A DNA stretch of 64,000 nucleotides from an uncultured Pseudomonadota bacterium (GTDB lineage Bacteria; Pseudomonadota; Alphaproteobacteria; RF32; CAG-239), in assembly GCA_949292335.1 (NCBI GenBank), contig CASEYY010000015.1, forward strand, positions 11,981 through 75,980. The letters are read 5' to 3'. Both the position numbers and the translations under genes were made by a program. Positions within the stretch are counted from its first letter, which is position 1, and every line of letters begins with the position of its first letter. The notes under the pieces were generated by a model, which was not told the origin of the DNA, did no database searches, and saw nothing but the letters and a program-made list of their open reading frames with translations. Positions 27,666 through 62,353 of the stretch are shown piece after piece.

Positions 27666-28007
27666 ATGCAATTTATAAAGAACAATATTTGGACCTTGTG
27701 TCTTGTAGTTTTGGCAGGTTTGTTTGCCTTTACTGGTGATGCAGCCGCTCAGGGTTCAGTAATGGAACTTGGTAAACAAAAAGCATTGAATGTGTTTACC
27801 TCAGTTAAAACAATTATTTTCATCGTTGGTGGTTTTGGTCTTGTAGGTATTGCCTTTGCCGCTATTTTCGGAAAAGTAAACTGGAAATGGTTTGCAGCTT
27901 TGGCTGTAGGTTTGGCAATTTTGGCTGCTGCCGGATCAATTGTTAACTACGCAACCGGTGATAGCATTAGTGGCTTTAACGATACCTTCTCGTCAGCTAC
28001 TAACTAA
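27666..28007 (+). CDS. virB2: VirB2/TrbC-like T4SS pilin
   Basis: 113 aa with a signal peptide ending AAA|QG, then two hydrophobic helices joined by GKVNWKW. Size and topology fit VirB2, and it is the first gene of the T4SS block. Confidence 0.6.
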   Translation: MQFIKNNIWTLCLVVLAGLFAFTGDAAAQGSVMELGKQKALNVFTSVKTIIFIVGGFGLVGIAFAAIFGKVNWKWFAALAVGLAILAAAGSIVNYATGDSISGFNDTFSSATN

Positions 28008-28020
28008 GGTTTTAGGTCAA

Positions 28021-28052
28021 GGCTTCGAGGCTTATGCAAAAGCCTCGGGGCC
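28021..28052 (+). terminator. Strong stem-loop after the small pilin gene (possible partial terminator or mRNA stabiliser)
   Basis: GGCTTCGAGGCTT-ATGCAA-AAGCCTCGGGGCC forms a 13-bp stem with two G-U pairs. No U-tract follows. Confidence 0.3.
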
Positions 28053-28155
28053 TAAGGCCTAAATAAAAGAAGGCTGGATTTATTTTTATACAAGTAACGG
28101 TGTGCAAAAACAAACTCAGTCAATAAAAGCGAACTAAGGCAAATAGGAGGATAAG

Positions 28156-28833
28156 ATGTATAAGTTAAAAGACATATTAAAAGTGCTTCTTATAGCCTTG
28201 TTTGTTTGTGTTTACAGCGCCGGAGATGTTTACGCCCAGACTGATATGTGCGGAGGCCCGTGTCCAGAAGGAAGTGTATGTACTAAAACAATGTCAAATG
28301 TAAATGGTGCAGACGAATGGAGATGCGTGCTCAAAGCAAAACCGACAGGAGATGTTAATACGGAAGGCCAAGGAGGTGCGACACAAAATGCCAACTTCTG
28401 CGGTACTGACGGCGGAGCGTTTTCTCAACTTGTAACTACCGGAGTTCTGATTTTCAAAAGATTACGCGATTTGATATATGTTGTAGCCGGTTTTGGTATT
28501 ATAGCGGTGGCTGTCGGAGGATTCTTTGGTAACCTCAACTGGAAGTGGCTGGGCGCGATAATCATTTCGCTGGTGGTTATAGCTTCTGCCGGAGAAATTG
28601 TTGCCATGATAACAGGATGTAGCAGTTTTGATGGAGGTCTCATTACCAACACACTAACACATCCCACCGGCATGAGTACACAAGAATTTAATGATACCTA
28701 TACCGAAAGAGTAAAGTTAAACAAGACCATAGACTGGAACGACAGTATGGATGTTTATACTCCACCTAACAGTTCTAGTGCTGCCGAAGCAGCCATTGAA
28801 GAGACTGGTTTAGAAGAAAACACTGCAGAATAA
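28156..28833 (+). CDS. VirB2-hairpin paralog with Cys-rich N- and extended C-terminal domains
   Basis: Signal peptide, then CGGPCPEGSVC...C region. The hairpin LIYVVAGFGIIAVAVGGFFGNLNWKWLGAIIISLVVIASAGEIVAMITG aligns with the 27666 product. About 75 additional C-terminal residues follow. Confidence 0.55.
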   Translation: MYKLKDILKVLLIALFVCVYSAGDVYAQTDMCGGPCPEGSVCTKTMSNVNGADEWRCVLKAKPTGDVNTEGQGGATQNANFCGTDGGAFSQLVTTGVLIFKRLRDLIYVVAGFGIIAVAVGGFFGNLNWKWLGAIIISLVVIASAGEIVAMITGCSSFDGGLITNTLTHPTGMSTQEFNDTYTERVKLNKTIDWNDSMDVYTPPNSSSAAEAAIEETGLEENTAE

Positions 28834-28868
28834 GATTATAAGGACGGATAAGGATACAGGAGGGAGCC

Positions 28869-33143: not shown

Positions 33144-33166
33144 AACAAGTTAACTCATTATTCATA

Positions 33167-33216
33167 AAACGGAAGTATGCTCTTAACATAAAGTTATGTA
33201 ATACTTCCGTTTTTTA
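33167..33216 (+). terminator. Rho-independent terminator closing the pilin-paralog operon
   Basis: AAAACGGAAGTA...TACTTCCGTTTT is a 12-bp stem followed by TTTTT. Confidence 0.75.
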
Positions 33217-33253
33217 TGTGTCAAATAGATGTAGGATAAAATTATTTGTATTG

Positions 33254-33282
33254 TTGCGAAAAAATAACGGATGTTTTATCAT
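33254..33282 (+). promoter_or_regulatory. Candidate sigma70 promoter for the virB3-virB4 operon
   Basis: TTGCGA-17 nt-TATCAT, 32 nt upstream of the virB3-like ATG. Confidence 0.3.
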
Positions 33283-33313
33283 AACCTCGGCTGTAGTTTA
33301 AAAGAGAATTGAT

Positions 33314-36023: not shown

Positions 36024-36102
36024 CAAAAGGCGGTTAAGTTATTTAATCTGTGCCGTAAATATGATAGAATGTAGGTAGGTTGACCGATAGGGGAGAACAG
36101 AG

Positions 36103-37263
36103 ATGAACAAGCATATAAAAACACTCGCAATACTGGCTTGCATAATTTATTCGCACTCATCCTATGCCGTTATCCCTACGGCAGATATTCCCGGCACCAT
36201 TCAGGCGGCCACCGAGGTTAGCAACACCATTAACAATGTAAAGGAGAGTATTGCACAAGTAACGCAATACCAAAAGACCATGGCGGCCATAGGGACAGCC
36301 AAAAAAAGTGTTTCGGAATTTATAAGCAACCAAAAAGAAAAATTGCAAAAGAAACTTGGTAAAATAGCGGAGTATAAGAAAAAAGCCGAGGAATACAAAG
36401 CTATTGCTCTTTCCTATAAGGAGGAAGCGGAAGAGCGAGTTGCATACTACAAAGGCTTGGCCGAAGATACGATAGAAACGGCCAAAGAATATAAGGCAAT
36501 GGCCGAAGAGGGTATTGAAACGGTTAAAGATGTAAGCAATACGGTTGTTGATACGGTTGAAAATGCCGATGAAATAGTATCCGGAGTAAGTTCCAATATT
36601 GAAAATCAGGTTAACGGAGCCGTTGATTCCATGCAAAGTAACTTTGCCGTAGATGATGATCTACTCGGTACGGGCAACAATGCTCAAGAAGCCACCCCCT
36701 CTCCGACCCGCACCGGTTTCCAGAGCTCATTTTTAACTCCGCAAAGCATTAAAACAAGCTATCCTTTAGCCTTTGCCAGTATATTAAAGATTGATGCATT
36801 TAAGGGTGGCACCACGCCAGACAAAGTATTGATAGTTCCCGACAGCATATCTGCCTACTGTAACTTAAATTATGAGAATGCAACGGAAGAAGGAGAGTTT
36901 GATAAATGTTTAACCCAAATCAACCAAAAACTTAATACGGAAGTAGCCGATGAGGTCGACAGACAAGAAAAATCAACTTTACAAACAGACCTGATGAACA
37001 GTTATGTCGAATATGTTACGGCTTCCTTTCTGGAGGCTTTTGCCATATACAACGAAAGCCTGACTTTCAAAAACAACATGGTAGATCCGGTAACCACTTC
37101 CAATATGGAGACCGTTGATGCAGTTTGGTCATACACCAAGGAAATGAACCGCATTATCGGTACGCGATACAATGCCTTGCGTCGCCTGTGGGCTCGTCAA
37201 CTTGGTGTAAAATCCTACAACTCATATCTCTACGCCGATTTATCGCCAGAAAATGAAAAATAG
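36103..37263 (+). CDS. Secreted coiled-coil protein, tentatively VirB5-like
   Basis: Signal peptide, then VIPTADIPGTIQAATEVSNTINNVKESIAQVTQYQKTMAAIG, which resembles the VirB5/TraC N-terminal pattern (IPV.D....Q...Q). It sits right after virB4. Confidence 0.4.
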   Translation: MNKHIKTLAILACIIYSHSSYAVIPTADIPGTIQAATEVSNTINNVKESIAQVTQYQKTMAAIGTAKKSVSEFISNQKEKLQKKLGKIAEYKKKAEEYKAIALSYKEEAEERVAYYKGLAEDTIETAKEYKAMAEEGIETVKDVSNTVVDTVENADEIVSGVSSNIENQVNGAVDSMQSNFAVDDDLLGTGNNAQEATPSPTRTGFQSSFLTPQSIKTSYPLAFASILKIDAFKGGTTPDKVLIVPDSISAYCNLNYENATEEGEFDKCLTQINQKLNTEVADEVDRQEKSTLQTDLMNSYVEYVTASFLEAFAIYNESLTFKNNMVDPVTTSNMETVDAVWSYTKEMNRIIGTRYNALRRLWARQLGVKSYNSYLYADLSPENEK

Positions 37264-37272
37264 GAGGAATAA

Positions 37273-37836
37273 ATGCTAAAACATCTGAAATACCTGCTTT
37301 TTTTCGGCTTTCTTTTAGGTTCTTTTGCCGCCGCCGCGGCAATATCCGATAATGGTCGCGATGCCAACGGCAATTTGATAGTATCAGAGGTTTTGGCCAA
37401 AAGATGCGGCCTAAGCTCGAGTAATCCGATTATTACCACCGACTGTATTACGAGGCTTGCATATGACTATAAGACAGGTATCATAACCGATTATGCTTCG
37501 TACGCCAAAGAACGTTCGGCCATATTGCACGATTATGTCGGAGAGTATATATATAAATCCGTCAGATCCATGGTTTCATCGGGAGAATATGAAGACCACA
37601 TAGATGAGCTGATAGGGGAAAATCCTCTCGAAACGGTAAGTCTGGACAATGACAGCCGTGAAAAGATGGAAGCAAACAACAAGATATCATCGGATAATTC
37701 GTCAGTATTTTTGGAAGCAATAGATTTGCGAGCCTCCGGTATAAATTTTAACAATATAAACAATGTATTGAATATATTGGTTCCGTTGGTTGATGTTAAT
37801 ACCGATAACACGGATTTGGCCATGCCGCCGTCATAA
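37273..37836 (+). CDS. Small secreted protein, unknown function
   Basis: 187 aa with a signal peptide (LLFFGFLLGSFAAAAA). Its stop overlaps the next start (TAATG). Confidence 0.5.
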   Translation: MLKHLKYLLFFGFLLGSFAAAAAISDNGRDANGNLIVSEVLAKRCGLSSSNPIITTDCITRLAYDYKTGIITDYASYAKERSAILHDYVGEYIYKSVRSMVSSGEYEDHIDELIGENPLETVSLDNDSREKMEANNKISSDNSSVFLEAIDLRASGINFNNINNVLNILVPLVDVNTDNTDLAMPPS

Positions 37837-39044
37837 TGTCAAGAGAGGATGCTATGAGAATTTTGTTGACATTGCTGGTATCAATAATTTTGCTCCTGTC
37901 GGGGCGGCCAAGTTTTGCCGGAACCGATTTGCTTTCGAACGCTTTGACGCAGAGCAACAGTTTTCTCAAACAAGCAGGATTGGTTCAAAAAAAGTATTCC
38001 GGTATAGCACGTAAAATTTTAACGACCAAAGTAAGCCTAAGTCTTGATAACATTAATCTCGGGCGTTTGGAGAAATATAAGGAAAAAGCAGAGGTTGCAC
38101 GAGAAAAAGCCGCCAGAGTTGAAGATTATCTGGAAACAGCCAAAGAACGCAAAGAAGAATTAGTGGAGAAGTATAATCGTTTAAATGCCAAAGCATTGGA
38201 ATATAAGGCTATGGCAGACGCGGCAATAGCGGAAGGCAACGAGATAAGAGATATGTACCGCAGTTATAAATCTGAGGTTGAGGACATAATAGACACCGGT
38301 AAAGAAGTCGCGGATACCGTAAAAGAAGCGATAGGCGAAGATGAAAATGAAATCAAAAGAGCCGAACCGGCCGGAGGAGATACGGCGGTTGCGGAGCCGG
38401 CAGAAACAGAAGCGGATGCTGTCGGAACGGAAGAATCGGAAGCCATTGGGGCTGATGAGGCGGAGGCACAAGTGGCCATAGGAGCAGAGACCTCAATAGT
38501 TTCGCGAGCGGCAGCTATGCAAAAGGTAAACAATGAGAGCAAAGCAACCTTTATGCCGGCTCAAAGAGTCGAGAGGATAAACACCGTCACGCGAATGAAT
38601 GAAGCAACAGCGGCAAGCTCGCAAGCCGCAGCAGCGGTTGCAGATGATGTTTCGGCAATCAGTACCGTCCGACCGATTATCGGGAATAAAGCCGAGGCGA
38701 TAACTTCAGCGGCGGTTTTGGCACAAGATACTACACGAACCGAACAAATTGCGGTACCCACGCAATTTAAAAGTATTGAGCAAGGGGCATCACTGGTTTC
38801 GCTGACAGATGTCATGAAAGCCGCGGCCGAGAATAAAGCAACACCGAAGAAAGCAGTTGAGGCTAAAAGCCAGGTCAGCATTCAACAGCAACTAAGCCGC
38901 AACAGCGGGGCAAAATCAGGAGCTGCCAATGGTCAAATAACTTCTGAGGGGCTCGTTTTGACGCCATCTGTTAAAGCCAAAAAAATACCGGAAAATAATA
39001 TTGTTGGGCCGGCACAACGGTTGGAGAAAGCAAATGTTAGGTAA
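37836..39044 (+). CDS. Secreted coiled-coil/Ala-rich protein, paralog of the 36103 product
   Basis: Signal peptide. ALEYKAMADAAIAEGNE...VADTVKEAIGEDENE parallels AKEYKAMAEEGIE...VVDTVENADE in the 36103 protein. Confidence 0.5.
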   Translation: MSREDAMRILLTLLVSIILLLSGRPSFAGTDLLSNALTQSNSFLKQAGLVQKKYSGIARKILTTKVSLSLDNINLGRLEKYKEKAEVAREKAARVEDYLETAKERKEELVEKYNRLNAKALEYKAMADAAIAEGNEIRDMYRSYKSEVEDIIDTGKEVADTVKEAIGEDENEIKRAEPAGGDTAVAEPAETEADAVGTEESEAIGADEAEAQVAIGAETSIVSRAAAMQKVNNESKATFMPAQRVERINTVTRMNEATAASSQAAAAVADDVSAISTVRPIIGNKAEAITSAAVLAQDTTRTEQIAVPTQFKSIEQGASLVSLTDVMKAAAENKATPKKAVEAKSQVSIQQQLSRNSGAKSGAANGQITSEGLVLTPSVKAKKIPENNIVGPAQRLEKANVR

Positions 39045-39576
39045 AATAATTAACATTATGGTGATTATGACAGCTATGCTTATAAGTAGTTCTGTGGCGA
39101 GCTACGCAAAATCTCAGGTAAAAGGGGATCCTGAGCTTTTGTGGCTGTCGCCGCTCGGAGATTCTGATATTGAAGACAACAGCTACTATCGTTGCCGACT
39201 TGCCAGATTGATAAATCCCGGTAGTGGTCAATCAACCACGGCCACGCAAAACAAGTATGATGTGATGTCCAATTATGTTTCCAACCTCTATGCTCAATCC
39301 ATAAAAATTTCGGCATACATAGAGAAAGAAGAAAAAAAAGCATCTTCTTCATCTACCGGTACCGACAATGAAATAGCAATTCTTGAAAAAGAAATAGTCC
39401 AAAGGATGGCCGACATATCTCGTCGTTTGAACATAATTAATTCATTTGAAGCCGGCATAGTCATGCTTGATGCTTTGGATGAGTTAGACAGTCTGCCTGC
39501 CGGTACATATTCATCATTTCGGGCCTTATCAGATGGAAGATATGAATATGTCACAGATTGTGAAGTGCTAAAGTAA
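39034..39576 (+). CDS. Small secreted protein, unknown function
   Basis: Start taken at ATG 39034, with GGAGAAAG upstream. Signal peptide MLGKIINIMVIMTAMLISSSVASYA. About 180 aa. Weak resemblance to the 37273 product. Confidence 0.5.
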   Translation: MLGKIINIMVIMTAMLISSSVASYAKSQVKGDPELLWLSPLGDSDIEDNSYYRCRLARLINPGSGQSTTATQNKYDVMSNYVSNLYAQSIKISAYIEKEEKKASSSSTGTDNEIAILEKEIVQRMADISRRLNIINSFEAGIVMLDALDELDSLPAGTYSSFRALSDGRYEYVTDCEVLK

Positions 39577-39589
39577 TGGAGTAAAAAAT

Positions 39590-40963: not shown

Positions 40964-40973
40964 GAGAAAAGAG

Positions 40974-45877: not shown

Positions 45878-45894
45878 TTTAAGGGAGTTCCGAA

Positions 45895-48218: not shown

Positions 48219-51200
48219 ATGAGCAAAGAGCCGTTAACACATTCCGAAAAGTATGTCAAAAAGACCAATACCATAATTTTGATGATAGGTATTGCCTCCC
48301 TGCTGATATTCATTTTTGGGTTGTTACTTTTGTTAAACAGCGGTGAGAGCATAGATACATACGAAGAGCCCGTATTTACGGATAATGCGGATGTATTCGG
48401 GGCGATTCCCACAACGACGCCTACGCAGAGTATAGAGTTTTCCACCATGGAAGGAGAAACTCCGCTTACCACCACCCCCGATCCGGTTCCGATTGGAGAA
48501 GTAGTATTGGGTACCGAGGCTAAAAATGTTTTAACACTCGGAACCAACGGTAAGGCCGCAATCAAAATAGATTCCGTATCTTTGGCCGATCCACCGGCAG
48601 CAGGTTTTACCTTTACCGATCGTTGCACCGGAATGACTTTGGAAGGAGATAAGACCTGCCATATAACGATGAGTTGGGTGCCTGTAGTTGCCGGCAATGT
48701 ACAAAATAATTTTATTATTTCATGGCACGAGGTTAACCTCGGAAACTCCAGTATAAAAGCGGCCAAAGTTCCGGTCACCGGTAATGCCGTGACCAAAGAA
48801 GATTGTACCTATTGCGAGACCGCTCCCGGCAGTGTGAGTGCCACGGATAAAAACGCCAAGGGAGTTCGCTATGCCATAGGTCCTGATGGCAAGATTATAG
48901 GAATTATAGACGAAGACGGTTTTGTCAGAGATGCCAACGGCAACATAATCGGAAAGGTAGGTCCTGATGGTCTGATTGTTGACAAGGACGGCAATGTGAT
49001 AGGTGTAGCGGAAAACCGCCGAGCCGTGTACGACGAGTTTGGTAATTTAATCGGCTATGTCAATCCGGATGGCTCGGTTGTCGATTTGGAAGGAAATGTC
49101 ATCGGCCGCGTTCTACCGGATGGTACGGTAGTTGACAAAGACGGTAAAGTTATAGGTCGAGCCGTTGAAACAGGTTATGTCTACGATGAAAACGGCAACA
49201 TAATCGGCCGCGTTCTGCCAGACGGAACGGTTGTCGACGAGAATGGCAATGTCATTGGCCGTGTGATGCCAGATGGAACGGTTGTTGATTTGAATGGTAA
49301 TGTTATTGGTCGCGTGACACAACCTGGACGCGTAGCCTTGGATGAAAACGGTAATGTTTTGGGCGTAGTATTGCCCGACGGGACGGTTGTTGACGCTAAC
49401 GGCAATGCAATAGGTTATGTCGATGCCAACGGCAACATAATCAAAAAGTCTTCGCCCCTTGACGGCAAAAAAGTAAGAGTTGCCTACGATGCCAACGGCA
49501 ATATTATAGGCTATGTTGATGAAAACGGCAATCTTTTGGATGCCAACGGCAATGTTATCGGCAAGATGCTTCCCGACGGTACAATAGTTAATCTTGACGG
49601 AGAGGTAATCGGCTATGCCGGAGAGGAAATTATTTTTGATTCGGCGACCAATGTTTTGGGGCGGTTGGTCATGTTTGACAAGATAGCTATTACACCGCAG
49701 GGGACATTACTCGGGACATTGCAAAACGACGGCAGCATAAAAAATGATAAAGATCAGGTTGTCGGCAGGTCTTTGCCTAACGGACTGGTCAAGGATCCTA
49801 ACGGAGCCAAAGTCATTGCCAAGATGGTTCGTGCCGGAATGATAATAGGATATGGTTGCAATCAAATTGGTTATTTGGATAAAGATGGCAAGATAAAAAA
49901 AGGCAACGAAGAAACTAATTACAAAATCACTCCCGAGGGTGTAGTTTTAAGTTCAGAGGGTCGCTATATCGGAGAAACTTTGAAAATTGGCCGCGTTTTT
50001 GACAACAACTGCAATCTGCTTGGAACCGTTGATAATTCTGGAATTGTAAAGGATTTAAACAACCGATATGTTGGTTGCGTCAATCCTGACGGCAGTGTGC
50101 TTAACGAACGCGGTGAATTTATCGGAGCCGTAGGAAAGAGCGGAGCGGCGGTTGACTTGGATGGCAGGTATATGGGTAAAGTCAGCATGGATAATATGGT
50201 AGTAAACGATGCCAAACTTCCGGTCGGATGCGTAGGTCTTTTAGGAGATGTATTCAATACCAAAGGAATATATATCGGCCGGGTTTTAGGAGAAAACTAC
50301 GTTTATACTCCTACCGGAGAATACATTAACAGAGTTGATGATAAAGCACAGGTTCGCATATATGGTAAACCTTCGGCGAGGTTGACTGCCGGAAATTTTG
50401 TTTTGGACGAGAATGGCAAGATACTGGGAACAGCGGTAGCGGCCAAGGCTTCGGTTTCAAATTCCGGCGGCAATCTAATCGGACGATTGTTTCCTGATGG
50501 ACAAGTCTATGACAATAAAGGCGTTGCACAGGGAAATATTAGAAACGGAGGCTTAAACAGCTACAATAATGTTAACGGAGCACTTTTGCCACGAGGAGAA
50601 GTTGTTGACATCAAAGGTGATATTGTCGGTACGGCTACAGACGACGGAACTGTTTTTAGTCGATATGGCGATACCCTGGGTAAGGTTAATGCCAAAGGTG
50701 AGTTTTTTAATATGAAAGGAGAGTATCAAGGCGGAATAGTAAGGAGGGGTGCCGCGATAGGTTATGACGGTTCATATATCGGCTATGCAGTTTCTGACGG
50801 CAAAGTAATAAGCCTTGAGGGAAAAAATGTTGCTCAGGTGACTCATGATAAAAAAGTCGTAAATTCGGAGGGGGAAGTCATAGGAGAAGTAATACCCGAA
50901 GGTATAATGTTGGATGCTCTGGGAAATTACAAGGGGTATTTGAATTCTCTCGGTGATGTTTTGGATCCGTCCGGCAAAATAATAACAGCCATATTACCCG
51001 GTGGCGGTACGGATAAAAATCTCCATATACTTCATTCCGGATTTGCGGTTGATTTTGGAGGTAATGTTATCGGGTCGGTATCTCCCGACGGCTCGGTTAC
51101 CGATTTTGCAGGCGTCATATTGGGCAAGGTTTTGTCTGATAATAATATTATCGGGGTCTCCGGAAAGATTATCGGAGAGGTAGTAAGCGGAGATATAGTA

Positions 51201-51524
51201 ATATCAAATGATGACAAAGTTGTGGGTTATGTAAATTTTGATGGAACAATTACCGGTAAAGATGCTAGTATAATCGGCAGGATGTTGTCGGGGGGACTTG
51301 CTATTGATTTGAACGACAGGATATTGGGAAAAATCTACAAGATCGGAGCAACAATACTGGGCAACGACGGCAAGTATAAAGGTCGGTTGTCTTATGACGG
51401 AACGGTAGTCGATAATAAAGGAGAAAATATTGGCTACATAAAGAGCAACGGGTCGTTTATAGACTTAGATAAAAATGTTTCCGGTTATGTTTTGGGCGAA
51501 GTTGCCAAAAACCAGAGGAATTAA
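48219..51524 (+). CDS. 1101-aa membrane-anchored protein of ~17-aa PDGxVVDxxGNVIGxV repeats
   Basis: N-terminal TM (IILMIGIASLLIFIFGLLLLL), then a ~130-aa beta-sandwich-like segment (VVLGTEAKNVLTLGTNG...CTGMTLEGDKTCHITMSWVPVVAG), then ~870 aa of degenerate repeats. Confidence 0.6.
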   Translation: MSKEPLTHSEKYVKKTNTIILMIGIASLLIFIFGLLLLLNSGESIDTYEEPVFTDNADVFGAIPTTTPTQSIEFSTMEGETPLTTTPDPVPIGEVVLGTEAKNVLTLGTNGKAAIKIDSVSLADPPAAGFTFTDRCTGMTLEGDKTCHITMSWVPVVAGNVQNNFIISWHEVNLGNSSIKAAKVPVTGNAVTKEDCTYCETAPGSVSATDKNAKGVRYAIGPDGKIIGIIDEDGFVRDANGNIIGKVGPDGLIVDKDGNVIGVAENRRAVYDEFGNLIGYVNPDGSVVDLEGNVIGRVLPDGTVVDKDGKVIGRAVETGYVYDENGNIIGRVLPDGTVVDENGNVIGRVMPDGTVVDLNGNVIGRVTQPGRVALDENGNVLGVVLPDGTVVDANGNAIGYVDANGNIIKKSSPLDGKKVRVAYDANGNIIGYVDENGNLLDANGNVIGKMLPDGTIVNLDGEVIGYAGEEIIFDSATNVLGRLVMFDKIAITPQGTLLGTLQNDGSIKNDKDQVVGRSLPNGLVKDPNGAKVIAKMVRAGMIIGYGCNQIGYLDKDGKIKKGNEETNYKITPEGVVLSSEGRYIGETLKIGRVFDNNCNLLGTVDNSGIVKDLNNRYVGCVNPDGSVLNERGEFIGAVGKSGAAVDLDGRYMGKVSMDNMVVNDAKLPVGCVGLLGDVFNTKGIYIGRVLGENYVYTPTGEYINRVDDKAQVRIYGKPSARLTAGNFVLDENGKILGTAVAAKASVSNSGGNLIGRLFPDGQVYDNKGVAQGNIRNGGLNSYNNVNGALLPRGEVVDIKGDIVGTATDDGTVFSRYGDTLGKVNAKGEFFNMKGEYQGGIVRRGAAIGYDGSYIGYAVSDGKVISLEGKNVAQVTHDKKVVNSEGEVIGEVIPEGIMLDALGNYKGYLNSLGDVLDPSGKIITAILPGGGTDKNLHILHSGFAVDFGGNVIGSVSPDGSVTDFAGVILGKVLSDNNIIGVSGKIIGEVVSGDIVISNDDKVVGYVNFDGTITGKDASIIGRMLSGGLAIDLNDRILGKIYKIGATILGNDGKYKGRLSYDGTVVDNKGENIGYIKSNGSFIDLDKNVSGYVLGEVAKNQRN

Positions 51525-55873: not shown

Positions 55874-55885
55874 AGGAGTAAGATT

Positions 55886-56854
55886 ATGAGTTTTACTGTT
55901 TTGGAATCAATCTTGAGACCGCTGTCATATTGGTATGAACAAGATGGTATAGAAGAGTTGGCAATAAATCATGCCGGAGAGGTTTGGTTAAGACTTCGCG
56001 GCAAGAGAGCACATCCGTGGGCCTGTTACAAAGATGAAAAGCTAAGCAAGGAATACTTGACCGATTTGCTTTATATTATTGCCAATACTTACGAGCTGCC
56101 GTTTGATCCGATACAAGGAAACCCGGTTGTATATGCTACCATTCCTGGGGAGCATCGTTTTTCGGCAATATGCGGCAAAAATGTGATGTACGACAATGAT
56201 GATTTGACCGGAGGCATTGCATTGACCATCCGTATTCACGCCGATGATGTGTCTTTCGGGTTAGGCGATTACGGCTTAACGCAAGGAGGTCATTTACATA
56301 AAATAAATCCGCTTAAAGACATCAAAGAGCCGGAGGATCCGTACGAAAGGCTTTTGCTCAGCATCAGACGCGGAGACCACATATTGGTATCTGGTGCGAC
56401 TGCAACCGGAAAGACGACATTTTTAAACAATTTATTGAAGATATTAGACATCAACAAACGAATATTAACCATTGAAGATACACGAGAGCTGATAGTTCCC
56501 CACAAAAACAGAGTGCATATAACATTATCAAGAACGGAGCAAACCAATGCTCTTACATATGCCAAGGTGATTGACCTGGTAGTTCGTTTTACTCCAGATG
56601 CTATTATCGGAGGCGAGATATCCACGAGCAATGCCGGAGCAATATGGGAGTTGATGGGTTCCGGCCACGATAACTGTCTTGCCACCATTCACGCTGAGAG
56701 TTCGGAAGCAGCATATCAAGCGTTTACCGACAGAATTTTGCATACCTATCCAACGATAGATCGCAATAAAACCATAGAAGAAATGCGTCACAAATTAAGG
56801 GTAATTCAGATAAACCGAGACGGTAACCTTCGTGCGGTCACCGAAATAACCTAA
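55886..56854 (+). CDS. virB11: VirB11 ATPase
   Basis: Walker A VSGATATGKTTF, plus RILTIEDTRELI and GHDNCLATIHA (His box); 322 aa. Confidence 0.9.
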   Translation: MSFTVLESILRPLSYWYEQDGIEELAINHAGEVWLRLRGKRAHPWACYKDEKLSKEYLTDLLYIIANTYELPFDPIQGNPVVYATIPGEHRFSAICGKNVMYDNDDLTGGIALTIRIHADDVSFGLGDYGLTQGGHLHKINPLKDIKEPEDPYERLLLSIRRGDHILVSGATATGKTTFLNNLLKILDINKRILTIEDTRELIVPHKNRVHITLSRTEQTNALTYAKVIDLVVRFTPDAIIGGEISTSNAGAIWELMGSGHDNCLATIHAESSEAAYQAFTDRILHTYPTIDRNKTIEEMRHKLRVIQINRDGNLRAVTEIT

Positions 56855-56967
56855 AATATAAAAAATGTGCAAAAACGGCAGATTTTGAGCTGTTTGTTAA
56901 CCCTAAATTTACAAGATTGGAATAAAATATCGCATTATGTGTATATTGCGAGGATATTGGTGCAGTA

Positions 56968-59535
56968 ATGGTGACGGAAACCAACAGAACAACAGAGGCA
57001 AGAAGGAAGGCGTTGCGTAAGGGCGACGAAGATCCTGTTGTTGTAGCTCAAAGGTACCTCAACATATACCGCCAGATGCATATATTGAGCGGGGAAAGAC
57101 GCGAAGCATTCAACAAAATGCTGGTAGCCTTGTCGCCCGATGTAAAGAGCATATTCTCTACTCTTCCCGGCGGAGCGATGCTGCAAGATTATATAGATGA
57201 GCTTACCGGCACCAAGAGCGGGGAAGATGCGGATGATTTTACTCAGTCTCCCTCTCCCGGGGTTGAAACATATGTTCAGCCGCAAGCAACGGCAGGCACA
57301 CCGACGGCACCGATTGCGGCAGTAAGCGGGAAGATAAGCTTTGATAAAGAATTTTCGGCCGAATTCACCAAGATAATAGCCGGACTTTTGCAACAACAAG
57401 CCATCACTCAAAAAGAGAGTTTAGAGAAGGTTATCAAAGATCTTGGGGGCAGCGGAGGGACTTCGAGCGGAGAAAAAGCCGACATAAGTTTAGGTGAAAA
57501 TTTTGCCGCGGATCTCGCCAAGAGCCTTCATCCACTGATGCAATATCAGAGCCAACTCCAAAAAGAAAGTTTGGCTAAGTTGGTGCAGGATATAAGCAAA
57601 ACACAATTATATATAGCCAAAAACATTAAAGAAGGTTATAGCGAGCACCAGCAGGAATTTAAGGAGCTATGCAAAGTAATTGCGGCCAAAAGCTCTTCTG
57701 TTTCATCACCTGCCGGCGGAGAAAATATCAGCGGAATAGATATAAAAGAGCTTTTGCAGACGATATCCGATAATTATCTGAGCATAAGAGAAGACCAAAA
57801 CAAAGAAATAAAAGAGATATGCAATGCAATAACCGAAGGCTTGAAGTCTGGTCGGGATAATAGCTCGTCACCTTCGGAAATTAAAGAGCTTTGCAATGCG
57901 ATTATACAAAGCCAAAAGAGCTTGGGTCAATCGTTAAGCGGAATTAAATTAGCCGACGGAGCGGTCGCTGCCCCGATGCCCGTATATGATGACGGTACTA
58001 CGCAAAAACTTATAGAGGCGGTTATAGAAGGGCAAAAGCAAATAAATTTGCGGCTTGATAAAGTCGAAGAAATGTCTCTAAACAAAGCCAATGACAATAT
58101 CAATCTGATAGAAGCGTTTAAGGCCACGCAAGAAGAACTTTTTAAGAAGTTCGGCAACAATCGGCCAGATTTTACGGAAGGTTCGCAGGCAAGAGAAGAT
58201 AACAGCGAGAAACTGCTTAAGCTAATCAATGATTCACAGGAAAAATTAATTAAAGCGGTTATGTCCTCGGTTTCCGCCAATGGAAGCAATAAAACAGGAA
58301 ACGGCAACGAAACGGTAGCTTCGGTTATGGTTTCGGACAACCAAGAAGCCATTGAGAAATTAATAAATAAAATATCTTCACTTCAAGCCTCCAATGAAAA
58401 AAATCTTGAAAAGGCCATCACCAAAGCGATTGAAGCACAGGGAGAAATTTTCGGCAAATTAAGTAATCGCAAGAACGAGGAGTTGATAGAAACGTTTACC
58501 AGAGGGGTTAAAGAGATATTAACACCCATGCTGGTAACGCAGATTAAGCAAGAAGCAGTTGCCGACATATCAAGGAGTGATCGATTTGCCAGTCCGGCAG
58601 TTGAAAAGAACATATACGAGCCCGCGGCAACGGAAACGGAGCTTAACGGTGATGTGTATGCACAAGAACCGTATGTTCCTGCCGATAATGCTGGTTTAGC
58701 TTCGGATACTACGGCAACAAAGAAAAAGAAGAAAAGTATAGCCGCGGCGGATAGCACAGCAGAGCCACCGGCATCGGCAGTCGAGCCTTTATCTCCTGAC
58801 GATGATTTCACTTTGCCGGCAGAAGATATCGAATATGATGATTTGCCGGAGGTTCCGGCGGCAACGGACTTTGCTGACTATGAAGAACCCCAGACTACTG
58901 AGGGCGACGATTTTAGATACTCCGGGAACACGGATGAATTTGATGTTACTCCTGATGACGCAGTATCTGACGATAATACACCGCTTTCAAATGAGGCGGA
59001 GACAACATCGGAAGCAGCCGATTACTCCTTGTCACAGGCAGACAGTGTGACAGGTAATGATGAAACGGCAGACAGCACCGAGATTGCCCAAGCAGAGGCG
59101 GAGGATGTCAGTGATGATTCCGCAAATACCGGTTTTGATTGGGGCTTTAACACCCAAGATGAAAACAATTCCGATATTGCTGGTTCCAATATATTGATAT
59201 CCGATGATTCAACAGGTGAAGAGGCAAATGATTGGGGCTTCGGCTCTACAGACGAAACAGAGGATATTCAAGCAGATTCCGCCGATTACCCGCAAGCACA
59301 AGAAGATGAAATCTACTCTCCTGCGGATACGGCGGGTAACGATAATTCCGATCAGGATTGGGAATGGGTTTATGTTGAAGACGACGAAGCTGCGGCAGAT
59401 GAATATTCTACTGAGGAAGTAGCGGGGAGCGACATAGGTTTAAATCGGCAGGAAAACATTCCGCAAAAGCTCAAATTACAACAATTTGAAGAAGAAGATT
59501 TCGATCCGTACCAAAATAGTGTTCTAAAAGATTAA
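56968..59535 (+). CDS. 855-aa cytoplasmic-type protein with hyper-acidic C-terminal third, unknown function
   Basis: No signal peptide or TM segment. Internal EIKE(I/L)CNAI repeats. The last ~300 aa are dominated by D/E/T/S (…DDFTLPAEDIEYDDLPEVP…DWEWVYVEDDEAAADEYS…). Confidence 0.5.
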   Translation: MVTETNRTTEARRKALRKGDEDPVVVAQRYLNIYRQMHILSGERREAFNKMLVALSPDVKSIFSTLPGGAMLQDYIDELTGTKSGEDADDFTQSPSPGVETYVQPQATAGTPTAPIAAVSGKISFDKEFSAEFTKIIAGLLQQQAITQKESLEKVIKDLGGSGGTSSGEKADISLGENFAADLAKSLHPLMQYQSQLQKESLAKLVQDISKTQLYIAKNIKEGYSEHQQEFKELCKVIAAKSSSVSSPAGGENISGIDIKELLQTISDNYLSIREDQNKEIKEICNAITEGLKSGRDNSSSPSEIKELCNAIIQSQKSLGQSLSGIKLADGAVAAPMPVYDDGTTQKLIEAVIEGQKQINLRLDKVEEMSLNKANDNINLIEAFKATQEELFKKFGNNRPDFTEGSQAREDNSEKLLKLINDSQEKLIKAVMSSVSANGSNKTGNGNETVASVMVSDNQEAIEKLINKISSLQASNEKNLEKAITKAIEAQGEIFGKLSNRKNEELIETFTRGVKEILTPMLVTQIKQEAVADISRSDRFASPAVEKNIYEPAATETELNGDVYAQEPYVPADNAGLASDTTATKKKKKSIAAADSTAEPPASAVEPLSPDDDFTLPAEDIEYDDLPEVPAATDFADYEEPQTTEGDDFRYSGNTDEFDVTPDDAVSDDNTPLSNEAETTSEAADYSLSQADSVTGNDETADSTEIAQAEAEDVSDDSANTGFDWGFNTQDENNSDIAGSNILISDDSTGEEANDWGFGSTDETEDIQADSADYPQAQEDEIYSPADTAGNDNSDQDWEWVYVEDDEAAADEYSTEEVAGSDIGLNRQENIPQKLKLQQFEEEDFDPYQNSVLKD

Positions 59536-59611
59536 AATAGTGATTTACAAAGCCAAAATGCTCAACTAAATTAATAGAGAGTATTTAAGGAGTTTTGCGA
59601 GGGGTTTTGCT

Positions 59612-60301
59612 ATGGAACCAAACAAAGAGTTTAGCTCTGGCCAGGGTGTCGGCGGTGATACCTGGTATGTTGACAACTATATTTTGCTAAAAGAATATTA
59701 CGATATGACAATTTCTCGTATTGCGGCTCGCTGTGTGCGTCAAGGGAATATTGCCATGGAAGAATATAAATACTATCCGTACATCTTAGATGTTTTGGAG
59801 GAAATAAGCGAAACCGGAGAATATATTTTATCACATCCCGATCTTTTCGGCTATGTCGAAAAAAAGATTGCCGGAGGAGTTAACAGCTTAAAAAAGAATC
59901 TAAAAGAATTCAAATCCGAGCTTGAGCAAAATGCTTCTCCGGATATGATAAAGCAAGACGGCAACGAACTAAATAAAATGAAAGAGGCTTTGGGTGAAAT
60001 AGACAAGTCCGATGATCCGACTTCGGGGGCCGGAATGTCAATGGATGAGGTTATAAATAAGCTAATGAAACAAAATAACATTGAACAAACTCAATATGAG
60101 GATGAGACACCGGCTCCTCAGCCTCGTCCGCAACCGCAAGGGCAGCAGCCTCGTCCGCAACCGCAAGGGCAGCAGCCTCGTCCGCAACCACAGGGGCAGC
60201 AGCCTCGTCCGCAACCACAGGGGCAGCAGCCTCGTCCGCAACCACAGGGGCAGCAACCTCGTCCGCAACCGCAGGGGCAGCAGCCTCGTCCGCAACAATA
60301 A
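59612..60301 (+). CDS. Protein with C-terminal (PRPQPQGQQ)n tandem repeat, unknown function
   Basis: 229 aa with no signal peptide. The C-terminal 60 aa are encoded by the 27-bp tandem repeat. Confidence 0.5.
   Translation: MEPNKEFSSGQGVGGDTWYVDNYILLKEYYDMTISRIAARCVRQGNIAMEEYKYYPYILDVLEEISETGEYILSHPDLFGYVEKKIAGGVNSLKKNLKEFKSELEQNASPDMIKQDGNELNKMKEALGEIDKSDDPTSGAGMSMDEVINKLMKQNNIEQTQYEDETPAPQPRPQPQGQQPRPQPQGQQPRPQPQGQQPRPQPQGQQPRPQPQGQQPRPQPQGQQPRPQQ
60122..60298 (+). repeat. 27-bp tandem repeat, ~6.5 copies
   Basis: CCTCGTCCGCAACC(G/A)CA(A/G)GGGCAGCA(G/A) repeated head-to-tail, with units starting at 60122, 60149, 60176, 60203, 60230 and 60257, plus a partial unit at 60284. Confidence 0.9.
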
Positions 60302-60309
60302 AACCGATT

Positions 60310-61578
60310 TTGATTATGACAATGAGACGCAGTTTTTATATATTAATGATGGCCATGCTTCTGCTTTCCGGTTGTGATTTATCCAAATATTACCATCCGC
60401 AACCGAAAGTCGAACCCCAAGCTCCGAGCTATAATGCTCAAGAGGTTAAAAAAACACCATATCCGACAATTAGGACTCCTAAAGGCGCTAATCGCCTTGA
60501 TTTGGAGACGCCGTACCGTTGTTTTGTCAACTGGAACACCCAAGAAATGATATCAACCATTCCCTATAATTCACAAGCCTTTAGGTTGGTCAGGAATGGC
60601 GAAAACGATGCCCTGCCGAAATTTGAAGTCAATGGTTTTTCTTTTGAAACAATGTCGGCCGAAAAGGCTTTGTTGAAACTAACCAAAGAGGCCGGCATAA
60701 AACTGATTGCTAAGGACGCCCCGTATGCCAGCATTTCTGCCGAAAATCTTAGAGGAAGTCTCACCGATGTTGTTAATATGCTTTGTGATGCCGCCGAAAT
60801 ATATTACACCTATAATTCGGCTAACCAAACCATGCGTATATCTCGCAAAGCCAACTACAGCCTTTATATCCCGCAATCACGAACAATTCTGCTTGCCATA
60901 CTTGATGTTTTACGAGGAGCCGGAATTACGGACTTTACCACAAATTTTGATGACTACAGCATAACTTTTGATGCCGACTTCGAATTGAAAAATCAAATCT
61001 TAAATTTGATAAACTATTTTGAGGAAAATCCGGTACTGTTGGCATATGATGTTAAAGTATTTAACCTATACCCCTACACTCCGGACGGCATAGAATGGCA
61101 ACAAATAATCAAAGCCTTTGAATTCGGGTCAATCAAAAGCAGTCGTAATGGGGTCTTGGGGCGGTTGCTGACCACCTCAAATGATATAAATGTATCGTCG
61201 TTGACAGCCTTTTTAAGCAGACAGGCACGAGTTGAAAGTGTCGGTGAAGGTAAGTTCGTAGTACCCAACTTATGGTTTTCGCGTTTTGATATCGGAAAAT
61301 GTATGAATCAATCCTCGATTTTGGCCAATATGACTTTGCTTGCCAAGGCATCTTTTGAAGAAAACAGTAAGATATATTCAGACATCACCATTGAGGTATC
61401 AAATGGCGAAATAGCCAATTATTCGATACGCAGTAAGCTTGGTGAAAATTTCCTAATCATAGGTCTTCCCAACACGGTATTTAACCCCAAATCGCCACAA
61501 TCGGAAACCATAATAATGGTAGTTCCGCGGGTAATAAAGACTATGAAGACCGATAAAACTCTAAAGAATAATTTGTAA
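60310..61578 (+). CDS. Lipoprotein (422 aa), possibly with secretin-N-like domain
   Basis: Lipobox LLLSGC. The segment FSFETMSAEKALLKLTKEAGIKLIAKD...LRGSLTDVVNMLCDAAEIYYTY is reminiscent of STN/secretin N-terminal modules. No secretin C-domain is present. Confidence 0.35.
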   Translation: MIMTMRRSFYILMMAMLLLSGCDLSKYYHPQPKVEPQAPSYNAQEVKKTPYPTIRTPKGANRLDLETPYRCFVNWNTQEMISTIPYNSQAFRLVRNGENDALPKFEVNGFSFETMSAEKALLKLTKEAGIKLIAKDAPYASISAENLRGSLTDVVNMLCDAAEIYYTYNSANQTMRISRKANYSLYIPQSRTILLAILDVLRGAGITDFTTNFDDYSITFDADFELKNQILNLINYFEENPVLLAYDVKVFNLYPYTPDGIEWQQIIKAFEFGSIKSSRNGVLGRLLTTSNDINVSSLTAFLSRQARVESVGEGKFVVPNLWFSRFDIGKCMNQSSILANMTLLAKASFEENSKIYSDITIEVSNGEIANYSIRSKLGENFLIIGLPNTVFNPKSPQSETIIMVVPRVIKTMKTDKTLKNNL

Positions 61579-61579
61579 G

Positions 61580-62353
61580 ATGGATGGTGTTATTATGGAT
61601 AATCCGCACAACATGGGGCAACCCCGTCTTAAAAAAATAAAAAGACCGATAAACCGCAGTTTGCCGCAGACATCGGCACAACCGATGCCATTGACGCCGC
61701 CGGCAGCACCCGCGGTTTCTCCTCAAGAGGCACCGACCAATCCTTTTAGGGCGGCATCGCCTCAGAGTAATGTCGGTTCGGCGTCTCCGCAAAATCCTAG
61801 GGCTTCCGTGGATTCGTACAATGTTGACAAAGAAATAGAAACCTCAGCCGAGCTCAATGACTATCTTGACGGTAGCAATGTCCCGTCGAGAGATGTTAAT
61901 TCTGGTAATATGTATGATTCTCCGCAATATATTGATGAGGATACATATGAGAGTGAGGTGTATGGTCGCAGCAAGGTAGGAGTTGGTTTGCCGGAGTGGT
62001 TAACGGTCAAGACGCTTTCCTTAATAATGGTTGTTACCCTATTTATCGGAGTTATTATCGGAAAGTTGGTTTTTGCCGAATCAAAAATAGTTCGCAACGG
62101 ATTACAGGGAGTAGTTGTCAATGCCGAAGTTCCCCGCGGGCGAGCACGGTGCGGAATTGCCGAAAGAGCCCAAGGTTGCGTTCTCTACATAATGAATCCG
62201 CAGAGACAGGATATGCGTGCCAAAGATTTTTACGATTTAGCGGCTCAAATGACAGGTCGGCAGCGATTTATGATAGAGACCGGCAATATGCGTTATGCCA
62301 ACAGCAAAATAAGTCCCGGCAACATTGTACAGCTAAACATTCCTCCGCTATAG
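61580..62353 (+). CDS. Bitopic membrane protein with Pro-rich N-terminus, unknown function
   Basis: 257 aa with a Pro/Ala/Ser-rich cytoplasmic N-region, a TM (LSLIMVVTLFIGVIIGKLVF), and a ~85-aa C-domain. It is the last gene before the terminator. Confidence 0.45.
   Translation: MDGVIMDNPHNMGQPRLKKIKRPINRSLPQTSAQPMPLTPPAAPAVSPQEAPTNPFRAASPQSNVGSASPQNPRASVDSYNVDKEIETSAELNDYLDGSNVPSRDVNSGNMYDSPQYIDEDTYESEVYGRSKVGVGLPEWLTVKTLSLIMVVTLFIGVIIGKLVFAESKIVRNGLQGVVVNAEVPRGRARCGIAERAQGCVLYIMNPQRQDMRAKDFYDLAAQMTGRQRFMIETGNMRYANSKISPGNIVQLNIPPL

Follow-up and report, generated by a model that had tools for sequence, protein, structure and literature searches.

What kind of machine is encoded by the genes at positions 27666–62353 of the window, as the whole 64,000-nucleotide stretch of contig CASEYY010000015.1 (assembly GCA_949292335.1, an uncultured alphaproteobacterium of the GTDB group CAG-239) is called here? 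In the initial annotation, the locus was read as a heavily expanded type IV secretion system (T4SS), in which canonical domains account for well under a third of the sequence. The calling of open reading frames (ORFs) revealed that 22 co-directional ORFs of the plus strand, separated by short gaps or overlapping, span this locus. They follow exactly the gene order originally proposed, B2(x3)-B3-B4-[six secreted proteins]-B8-lipoprotein-B8-B9-repeat protein-B10-B11-[four genes], and profile scans confirmed it. The VirB4 Walker A motif (GPTGQGKT), the VirB11 motif (GATATGKTT), as well as VirB8, VirB9 and VirB10, were all recovered in the translations and in the profile scans. Based on a tally of profile and homology matches, recognisable VirB domains make up ~2,640 of the 11,284 residues (23%) of the locus proteins, in agreement with the share estimated at the outset. 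With VirB4, VirB2/TrbC and VirB3, VirB7, VirB9 and the C-terminal domain of VirB10, VirB8, VirB6, and VirB11 all found, the locus is an intact, greatly enlarged VirB-type (P-type, type IVA) T4SS.

A VirB4 scan of one genome per bacterial species yielded 68 loci, all of them from uncultured gut Alphaproteobacteria, in each of which the locus takes up about 35 kb of the genome. A VirB11 scan of metagenomes added 80 further loci with the B9-BF-B10-B11 part (BF being the repeat protein). According to the record titles, the carriers include "Proteobacteria bacterium CAG:495" and metagenome-assembled genomes from human (Hadza, Nepali), roe and water deer, sheep and rabbit; the CAG:495 genomes presumably belong to order RF32 of GTDB. 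Across the 68 genome loci, the identity of VirB4 is 65–96%, and the order B2-B2-B2-B3-B4-[4 to 6 secreted ORFs]-B8-B7-B8-B9 is retained throughout. Since the order recurs in at least 68 species-level genomes and in 80 metagenome loci, the locus is no chance pattern.

Expanded T4SSs as such are well known: the Cag (CagY) and Dot/Icm (DotG) systems have many extra subunits and giant repeat-bearing VirB10 homologs. Such systems have been reviewed (PMC12857230), and expanded VirB-type T4SSs are a known kind. A literature search for T4SSs in RF32, CAG-239 or CAG-495 gave no description of the present one, and neither its lineage nor its additions were found in the literature searched. The additions comprise a pilin longer by ~1,300 residues, arrays of beta-flowers both in VirB10 and in a duplicate array protein, a fusion of VirB9 with SPOR, a compact secretin linked to the system, and a conserved pairing with a type IVb pilus. 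The core parts score well under the NCBIfam equivalog cut-offs, and no locus protein matches a Cag or Dot/Icm accessory family in profile and PDB searches (Pfam and NCBIfam gave no match to CagM, Cag3, CagT, DotC, DotD, DotH or IcmX). The window repeats are beta-flowers (PF21785), not CagY or pentapeptide repeats, and the core is VirB-type, not type IVB. These results bear out the proposal of a distinct, elaborated lineage with an accessory set unlike that of Cag or Dot/Icm. The Cag and Dot/Icm systems, which had been put forward as precedents, are nevertheless not the nearest relatives; these are compact conjugative plasmid systems of other Alphaproteobacteria.

Other claims about the inventory needed correction. 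The statement that most of the locus is not canonical machinery is consistent with the domain share of 23%, yet it is overstated, because much of the extra sequence consists of duplicated or extended canonical parts (three VirB2 proteins, a VirB5-like A1 and its paralogs, and BF, a paralog of the VirB10 repeat region). The parts list lacked the secretin homolog C3, the type IVb pilus cluster and two VirB6-like genes outside the 35 kb. The last four genes, counted there as part of the T4SS locus, form a separate, often inverted module with a secretin homolog, the secretins being no T4SS family (Table 1).

Table 1. Positions and identifying evidence for the secretion locus and its linked features (window coordinates; aa, amino acid residues)
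Feature	Position	Strand	Evidence
Type IVb pilus cluster	9920..20854	-	Pfam matches
VirB6/TrbL-like paralog I (VirB6-I), 680 aa	21023..23065	+	weak TrbL match, E 0.0046
VirB2 pilin a, 113 aa, canonical size, most conserved of the three	27666..28007	+	PF04956, E 4e-9
VirB2 pilin b, 225 aa	28156..28833	+	PF04956, E 4e-6, C-terminal half only
Giant VirB2 pilin c, 1424 aa	28869..33143	+	core 44% identical to VirB2a, E 1e-18
VirB3, 96 aa	33314..33604	+	homolog of annotated Microvirga plasmid VirB3, E 1.7e-8
VirB4 ATPase, 809 aa	33594..36023	+	TIGR00929, E 7e-114; PF03135, E 2.5e-15
A1, 386 aa, secreted	36103..37263	+	directly after virB4
A2, 187 aa, secreted	37273..37836	+	free-standing paralog of A1 C-domain; hhalign 98.9%, E 4e-17, 144 columns
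A3, 402 aa, secreted	37836..39044	+	coiled-coil segment in common with A1; hhalign 97%, E 5e-11
A4, 191 aa, secreted	39001..39576	+	no family match
A5, 457 aa, secreted, acidic	39590..40963	+	N-terminus paralogous to that of A1
A6, 1279 aa, secreted	40974..44813	+	two conserved globular regions, central coiled coil; no family match
VirB8 paralog a, more divergent	44829..45584	+	PF04335, E 1e-17
VirB7-type lipoprotein, 62 aa	45689..45877	+	LSGC lipobox, 'GIG...LK.SPCAC' motif
VirB8 paralog b, more canonical	45895..46629	+	PF04335, E 8e-24
VirB9 with C-terminal SPOR domain	46637..48211	+	PF03524 (VirB9/CagX), E 1e-12; PF05036, E 7e-5
BF, 1101 aa, bitopic inner-membrane protein	48219..51524	+	PF21785, 212 bits, 8 stretches
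Giant VirB10, 1448 aa	51527..55873	+	PF21785, 185 bits, 6 stretches; PF03743, E 2e-34
VirB11 ATPase	55886..56854	+	TIGR02788, E 8e-39; GATATGKTT; 41% identical to Microvirga VirB11
C1, 855 aa, cytoplasmic, acidic, only N-terminus conserved	56968..59535	+	no family match
C2, 229 aa, cytoplasmic	59612..60301	+	conserved N-domain, PQPQGQQPR tandem repeat tail; no family match
C3, 422 aa, lipoprotein, compact secretin homolog	60310..61578	+	N-domains and shortened secretin domain
C4, 257 aa, bitopic membrane protein, always follows C3	61580..62353	+	hydrophobic segment 140-171
Double helix-turn-helix (HTH, XRE-type) regulator	62397..63368	-	PF01381 twice, E 8e-29; 72-77% identity, adjacent in relatives
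VirB6/TrbL-like paralog II (VirB6-II), start, off window end	from ~63759 (63759..64000)	+	weak PF04610, E 0.009

Relationship to compact plasmid systems

Among the plasmids in PLSDB, the best matches of the window VirB4 are found in Microvirga sp. VF16 (39%), Erythrobacter aureus (35%), Sphingosinicella and Candidatus Paracaedimonas (30%); identity to Agrobacterium VirB4 is 25%. The systems of the Microvirga plasmid pMVF16-3 (NZ_CP069357) and of the E. aureus plasmid (NZ_CP031358) are the closest relatives of every core part, and all of the core proteins are 25–41% identical to their homologs there: VirB2 (VirB2a to the Microvirga protein) 41%, VirB3 26%, VirB4 39%, VirB8 29–30%, VirB9 34–36%, the VirB10 C-domain 33–35%, and VirB11 41%. 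The VirB7 lipoprotein, which shares the motif 'GIG...LK.SPCAC' with its plasmid counterparts, is 35% identical to the lipoprotein at the same position in Erythrobacter (E-value, 1e-10) and 30% identical to that of Microvirga (E-value, 7e-8).

Both plasmid loci encode a MobA/MobL relaxase, VirB2-B3-B4, one or two secreted helical proteins, a lipoprotein of 58–68 aa, VirB8-B9-B10 (VirB10 of 530–590 aa), VirB11 and VirD4, and the order B2-B3-B4-(B5-like)-...-B7-B8-B9-B10-B11 is common to them and the window. They are compact (~13 kb) and conjugative in type, with one VirB2 and one VirB8, in contrast to the ~35-kb chromosomal locus of the window. Their VirB10 proteins contain no beta-flower repeats, the Microvirga VirB9 has no SPOR match, and the loci have no BF paralog or secretin module but possess MobA/MobL and VirD4, whereas neither transfer gene is linked to the window system. 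It is likely, judging from these alignments, that the system descends from a compact conjugative T4SS lineage carried on plasmids of other Alphaproteobacteria, and it is plausible that the compact plasmid systems picture its unexpanded ancestor. With such an ancestor-like relative at hand, the steps of the expansion can be traced: pilin extension, growth of the VirB5 family, insertion and duplication of VirB10 repeats, SPOR fusion, and loss of the linked transfer genes. The locus appears to represent a route to an "expanded" T4SS separate from those of Cag, Dot/Icm and rvh (the Rickettsiales vir homolog system).

As had been noted initially, neither VirD4 nor a relaxase was found in the window: tblastn searches with the VirD4 and MobA/MobL proteins encoded by the Microvirga and Erythrobacter plasmids gave no match in it or in 151 related loci (2.5 Mb), where VirB11, taken as a control, was hit 86 times. 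As the relatives' loci reached only ~10 kb to either side of VirB4 or VirB11, the absence of VirD4 holds only for the neighbourhood of the system.

The accessory proteins are 21–86% identical in loci where VirB4 is 80–96% identical. Across bins of VirB11 identity, median identity is 84–93% for VirB11, 60–68% for VirB9, 58–66% for C3, 50–63% for BF, 42–53% for VirB10, and ~24% for C1. The ratio of nonsynonymous to synonymous substitution rates (dN/dS) is 0.01–0.03 for the core genes and 0.04–0.29 for pilins b and c and A1–A6, with dS saturated. This shows that the accessory genes are under weaker constraint than the core.

Pilins, secreted proteins and envelope components

Three VirB2 paralogs were found in 56 of 59 loci. 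VirB2a is 54–100% identical among related loci. VirB2b (31% identical to VirB2a; E-value, 3e-16) has its pilin core at about residues 99–158, with a Cys-rich N-terminal extension and a C-terminal extension. VirB2c is composed of a signal peptide, a coiled-coil N-extension of ~350 aa, a pilin core at about residues 367–432 that includes a hydrophobic hairpin (residues 379–406), and a coiled-coil C-extension of ~980 aa. The first and second VirB2 have median lengths of 114 and 186 aa across loci, and the third ranges from 128 to 2058 aa in 56 loci (median, 1266 aa), being 128 aa long in the most divergent lineages. In VirB2b and VirB2c, the extensions thus stand on both sides of a conserved two-helix pilin core. 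Because both pilin termini point outward in known VirB2 and F-type pili, the extensions would decorate the fibre, which fits the earlier idea of a "decorated pilus". The other initial idea, an unusually long stalk across the periplasm, is conjectural.

The pilin genes also lie in a tract of ~8 kb (window 24600–32600; mtnN, apt, luxS, a ROK kinase gene, VirB2a, VirB2b and most of VirB2c) that is 99–100% identical to contig CASFRM010000006.1 (L001), while the DNA on either side is 71–89% identical. Diverged lineages thus seem to have exchanged the pilin cassette recently by homologous recombination.

VirB3, which has two hydrophobic segments, gave no Pfam match and is 57–97% identical across loci. 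The nearest VirB4 structure in PDB is TrwK of R388 (E-value, 1e-44).

The six ORFs that follow virB4 (36103–44813) each encode a protein that starts with a signal-like hydrophobic segment and belongs to no Pfam or NCBIfam family; when all accessory proteins were scanned together with 67 and 33 orthologs, only coiled-coil noise came back. In A1, a VirB5-like N-terminus is followed by a coiled coil and then by a helical C-terminal domain with two conserved Cys. In nearly all lineages, the product of the first gene after virB4 carries an A-Q-I-P-V-x-D type motif behind the signal peptide and 'IG' ~40 residues further on, a pattern also present in the VirB5-position proteins of the Erythrobacter and Microvirga plasmids. 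A profile of 46 orthologous A1 N-termini matched Erythrobacter VirB5 in hhalign (94.8%; E-value, 5e-8; 65 columns including the signal peptide) and the Microvirga protein with 75% probability. Erythrobacter VirB5 itself matches PF07996 (E-value, 7e-7), and TrwJ, the VirB5 of R388, is the only T4SS protein among the weak PDB matches of A1 (N-terminal register; E-value, 0.04). PF07996 is not matched by any of 67 accessory proteins, and the C-domain of A1 shows no similarity to the C-terminal part of VirB5.

An iterative search with hidden Markov models started from A1 drew in A2, A3, A5 and A6, but as such a search likely drifts on coiled coils, family links were taken from pairwise profile comparisons. 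In these, the N-terminus of A5, which has no family match, aligns in register with that of A1 (hhalign 93.6%; E-value, 2e-7), and A2 and A3 are joined to A1 by the segments given in Table 1; beyond its coiled coil, A3 gave no family match. Based on these alignments, A1 is probably a derived VirB5, with A2, A3 and A5 in its family. The pairwise comparisons spoke against membership of A4 and A6, hhalign finding A4 unrelated to the other accessory proteins. A6 was found in 47 loci (24–85% identity), and PDB searches with it gave coiled-coil noise only.

In one relative (L154 1331–2572, protein P0175), a 413-aa protein has a TIR domain (residues 47–164; E-value, 2e-24) fused to an A1 C-terminal domain (46% identity). 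On the one scaffold that carries it, 3.4 kb long, its gene directly follows an IS5-type transposase gene and precedes an A2-like gene, and the fusion may be real or an assembly artefact.

The envelope core begins with two VirB8 paralogs that are 30% identical to each other. The nearest PDB structure to VirB8a is Bartonella VirB8, which VirB8b matches with E-values of 1e-9 to 2e-10. The SPOR match of VirB9 (23.5 bits; cut-off, 21) was found in nine of ten VirB9 orthologs. VirB10 (orthologs, 1541–1828 aa) has a membrane anchor, ~900 aa of beta-flower repeats, an Ala/Glu/Lys helix, a Pro-rich linker, a TrbI domain (residues 1146–1336) and a tail, and its residues 1141–1343 match the NCBIfam models ComB10 (E-value, 6e-32; 111 bits, cut-off 300) and VirB10 (E-value, 1e-27). 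BF has a hydrophobic segment (residues 13–46) followed by a periplasmic beta-flower-type repeat array over almost its whole length. It is a paralog of the VirB10 repeat region (BLASTP E-value, 8e-57) and is conserved beside VirB10 in the metagenome loci; PDB searches with BF gave no informative match.

By PF21785 score (cut-off, 38 bits), both BF and VirB10 contain beta-flower repeats, and their long arrays may fold into closed flowers. The beta-flower (PF21785/PF21784; Durairaj et al. 2023) consists of repeated beta-hairpin "petal" units with a [DNEQ]xxG motif; the fold was defined in 2023 from predicted structures and had no known function (PMC10584680). The present locus places beta-flower arrays inside a defined machine.

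Two VirB6-like proteins complete the core. VirB6-I, separated from the T4SS locus by housekeeping genes, has a Cys-rich N-terminal periplasmic part, a polytopic core and a Gly/Ala-rich tail, and precomputed PF04610 matches exist in about 18 of 120 listed homologs. VirB6-II could be followed over 676 aa in a related locus of the same sequence (L069, 99.7% identity), and it is 30% identical to VirB6-I (E-value, 2e-83). The double-HTH regulator, a candidate repressor of the locus, lies between the C1–C4 module and VirB6-II and has a C-terminal domain without a family. The absence of VirB1 from the window, claimed initially, stands for the locus: no VirB1 lytic transglycosylase was found between 21023 and 64000. 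Many T4SSs dispense with VirB1. It does not stand for the whole window, as an SLT-domain lytic transglycosylase (4635–5369, minus strand; E-value, 2e-12) is encoded 22 kb upstream of the T4SS; it could serve the T4SS, the type IVb pilus, or neither.

The rvh system resembles that of the window in its alphaproteobacterial host, several large VirB6 proteins, the lack of a clear VirB5, and a duplicated VirB8 with VirB7 in between. In Rickettsia typhi, the order is divergent B8 - B7 - canonical B8 - B9 - B10 - B11, and rvh also duplicates VirB4 and VirB9, retains VirD4, and is split into several islets (PMC4676284). The identity of the VirB8 pair is 30% in the window and 18% in rvh as reported (PMC4676284). 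Unlike in rvh, no paralog of VirB4 or VirB9 was found among the window proteins. Neither window VirB8 profile matches any Rickettsia VirB8 chain at E ≤ 10 in the PDB copy searched, which may or may not include the RvhB8-II structure (4O3V). Kinship with rvh, suggested by the B8-B7-B8-B9-B10-B11 order, is thus not supported by the VirB8 sequence and profile comparison, and the shared order looks convergent.

C1–C4 are a module separate from the VirB genes. In many lineages the module is inverted after VirB11, still adjacent to it, and followed by the double-HTH regulator and VirB6-II; the inversion was seen in L078, L088, L125, L132, L147 and L149. Extra ORFs stand between VirB11 and the module in L124, L125 and L132, one of them IS200/IS605-type transposase-like by eye. 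C1 has no signal peptide and no membrane segment, is ~24% identical in loci where VirB11 is 93% identical, and is possibly a substrate or an adaptor. It is one ORF in the window and two genes (573 + 240 aa) in L069 (11083–13598), where the DNA of the region is 99.7% identical and differs in length by ~50 bp, so that the split reflects indel or frameshift variation in the fastest-evolving gene. C2 is 65–70% identical across loci. Its tail is encoded by a 27-bp tandem repeat (6.6 copies, 96% matches, 60119–60296), and this level of matching suggests recent expansion or variation in copy number. C4 is 43–46% identical across loci and gave no Pfam match and nothing in PDB searches.

C3 has 898 homologs (64–92% identity among the top 120). 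Its remote profile matches (E-values, 1e-14 to 1e-5) are PF00263 secretins from beyond the clade's own, some with TcpQ/STN domains. An AlphaFold2 model (mean predicted local distance difference test, pLDDT, 66) had BfpB as its best Foldseek match (9u5s_A; E-value, 3.9e-9), followed by InvG, XcpQ, PilQ and GspD, and all 30 matches at E ≤ 0.001 are secretins. An hhalign comparison with a Pfam-confirmed secretin gave 98.8% (E-value, 1e-16) over residues 101–421, up to the C-terminal 'SE..I...PR.IK' end, the secretin domain of C3 being ~55 residues shorter. The Pfam secretin model itself does not match C3 at E ≤ 0.01, and no similarity was detectable between C3 and the type IVb pilus secretin of the window. 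Because profile search, Foldseek and hhalign concur, C3 is regarded as a compact secretin homolog. Cag and Dot/Icm systems have extra outer-membrane lipoproteins with secretin-N0-like domains such as DotD, which the N-domain of C3 weakly matches (Foldseek E-value, ~8e-3), but C3 is a whole compact secretin and not an N0 domain alone. Like the type IVb pilus secretins (BfpB, TcpC, R64 PilN), of which BfpB is the best structural match, it is a lipoprotein; unlike them, it is shorter, falls below the Pfam threshold, and stands beside a T4SS with no pilin, ATPase or platform of its own module.

The type IVb pilus cluster, in turn, contains two PilS/bundlin-like pilins, a T2SSF platform, a T2SSE ATPase, a 452-aa coiled-coil protein, PilO, a lipoprotein secretin (16774–18399), a TcpQ-like protein, and a 570-aa protein without a family. 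Of the 53 loci with full flank, 38 have homologs of the cluster upstream of VirB4 at a distance of at most 10 kb. The most divergent lineages are among these, so that the pairing of the type IVb pilus with the T4SS is ancestral to the clade.

Function and competing explanations

What the enlarged system does may be judged by analogy with the Trw system of Bartonella. To our knowledge, beta-flower repeats, a SPOR fusion and a secretin are absent from Trw. It has conjugative ancestry, no coupling protein, and several variable copies of VirB2 and VirB5, and it is thought to make variable adhesive pili (PMC4676284, PMC12857230). The window, for its part, has three VirB2 paralogs, a VirB5-like secreted family, and no linked VirD4. 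The two are not close relatives: Trw is near to R388, whereas the window VirB4 matches TrwK only distantly (E-value, 1e-44) and its nearest relatives are on alphaproteobacterial plasmids. Besides, Trw amplifies near-identical small genes in tandem, while the window paralogs are ancient and have huge extensions. Based on the parts list, on the loss of linked transfer genes, on VirB2 and VirB5-like genes that are both multiple and variable, and on the conserved presence of an adhesive pilus alongside, we give about an even chance to the reading that the locus is a domesticated T4SS without a coupling protein, which would build a variable surface pilus or adhesin.

From the identities, conservation and linkage observed, we infer how such a machine would be assembled, which way the extensions would face, that no coupling protein would be needed, and that the function would be adhesive, as follows. 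VirB3, VirB4, VirB8a and VirB8b, VirB6-I and VirB6-II, and VirB11 would form the inner-membrane motor, and VirB7, VirB9 and the VirB10 C-domain the outer-membrane core, which the SPOR domain of VirB9 is predicted to anchor to peptidoglycan. The beta-flower arrays of VirB10 (~900 aa) and BF would enlarge the periplasmic part. The motor would polymerise the canonical VirB2a, with VirB2b and VirB2c entering as minor pilins, so that their terminal extensions (up to ~1,300 aa of coiled coil) would come to lie on the outside of the fibre. The fast-evolving VirB5-derived proteins A1, A2, A5 and perhaps A3, together with A6, might serve as adhesins of the tip or sheath. Two-step secretion has been described for the Ptl and Brucella systems (PMC12857230, PMC4676284), and two-step export of the Sec-dependent A-proteins in the same fashion is possibly added. 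C3 and C4, the compact secretin module, could provide a second outer-membrane channel, and the neighbouring type IVb pilus would probably help to make or tighten the contact with a target.

Several points weigh against this domesticated, adhesin-building T4SS. VirD4 is possibly encoded elsewhere in these genomes. With saturated dS and every dN/dS value under 0.3, the variability of the proposed adhesins gives no direct evidence of diversifying selection. A pilin of 1,424 aa may be sterically unable to polymerise. The VirB5 assignment is based on ~65 N-terminal residues, signal peptide included. The AlphaFold2 model of A1 (mean pLDDT, 51) is confident only for residues 234–383, the helical C-terminal domain, and a Foldseek search with this low-confidence model found nothing in PDB below an E-value of 0.1 and no VirB5 match. 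The secretin module and the type IVb pilus are tied to the T4SS by position, and C1–C4 are separate from it and often inverted. Finally, the system is known from sequence alone.

In the main rival explanation, the T4SS would translocate effectors, delivering cytoplasmic proteins into bacteria, protists or the epithelial cells of a host, with a VirD4 encoded elsewhere recruiting the substrates, the expansions being adaptations for reaching the target, and C1 a substrate or adaptor. The complete motor, VirB11 included, would suit such a task, as would the cytoplasmic C1 and C2, which are always linked to the system (C1 evolving very fast), and expanded effector systems such as Cag and Dot/Icm have giant repeat-bearing VirB10 homologs too. 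No VirD4, however, is found within ~10 kb of the system in 151 loci, Pfam and NCBIfam scans revealed no eukaryote-like or toxin domain in the locus proteins, and neither effector-immunity pairs nor XVIPCD-type substrates were seen. The TIR domain joined to the A1 C-terminal domain in one relative would fit an effector, but this fusion, on its single 3.4-kb scaffold beside an insertion sequence element, may be an artefact. Taken together, effector translocation seems rather unlikely. A Xanthomonas-type bacteria-killing T4SS was considered as well and rejected as the primary explanation, as no VirD4, no N0-type VirB7 and no effector-immunity pairs were seen.

Can a secretin serve a T4SS? This question is raised by a composite view, unlikely as it is, in which the T4SS, the C1–C4 secretin module and the type IVb pilus act as one surface machine. 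The VirB motor would assemble a fibre with coiled-coil decorations on the megadalton scale (VirB2c, A-proteins); too bulky for the VirB10 pore, this fibre would cross the outer membrane via or beside the secretin, while the pilus brings the target near. We know of no recognised architecture in which a T4SS has recruited a secretin. Likewise, the 2025 unified-nomenclature review of T4SSs makes no mention of secretins (PMC12857230).

A role in DNA uptake or release, like that of Helicobacter ComB or of the gonococcal genetic island (GGI) of Neisseria and with the type IVb pilus capturing the DNA, is very unlikely. The best NCBIfam match of the VirB10 domain is indeed ComB10, but its score is far under the cut-off (111 vs 300 bits), and every core protein is closest to conjugative plasmid systems, not to ComB. 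A linked type IV pilus cluster, the lack of a linked coupling protein or relaxase, and the homologous exchange seen in the ~8-kb recombination tract over the pilin genes would all be in keeping with DNA uptake. Against it, ComB systems have no VirB11, giant pilins or secreted-protein arrays, VirB11 is conserved here (84–93%), and no ComEC-type, DprA-type or other DNA-processing gene was detected among the window proteins scanned.

Flanking chromosome and minor features

The locus is flanked by housekeeping genes, in an order common to relatives. By eye from the translations, aroK, luxS, apt, mtnN and the recombinase look like chromosomal housekeeping genes. GC content is alike inside and outside the locus. 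VirB4 is 85–92% identical where the ROK kinase is 65–80% identical, and it is also more conserved than the neighbouring recombinase. This points to a resident chromosomal system and not a recent mobile element, and the stronger conservation of the core relative to the flanking housekeeping proteins fits long vertical residence. It also implies that the machine is central to the life of these organisms, probably as a means of attaching to a partner, be it host, protist or bacterium.

A reading of the locus as mating-pair-formation module of an integrative conjugative element, with relaxase, coupling protein and integrase further off, is highly improbable. In its favour, the nearest relatives in culture have plasmid loci of conjugative type that include MobA/MobL and VirD4, a tyrosine recombinase gene (23050–23952) and a tRNA-Val gene (at 6938) lie nearby, and the combination of type IVb pilus and T4SS recalls IncI plasmids such as R64, which have both. 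Against it, the recombinase and its neighbours look like housekeeping genes in a conserved flank order, the 2.5 Mb of related loci yielded neither relaxase nor VirD4, the GC content is unremarkable, and the core is conserved as expected of a long-term resident.

Scans for promoters and terminators gave no operon boundaries, every terminator-like site of the plus strand being intragenic. A patatin-like protein, recognised by eye, is encoded directly beside the first type IVb pilin gene (8994–9863, minus strand). The AT skew of the coding strand is strongly positive (0.14–0.25) in the accessory genes (window 28000–46000 and 54000–60000), in contrast to values of ~0 in VirB4 and the flanks, owing to the Lys/Glu/Asn/Gln-rich composition of the coiled coils.

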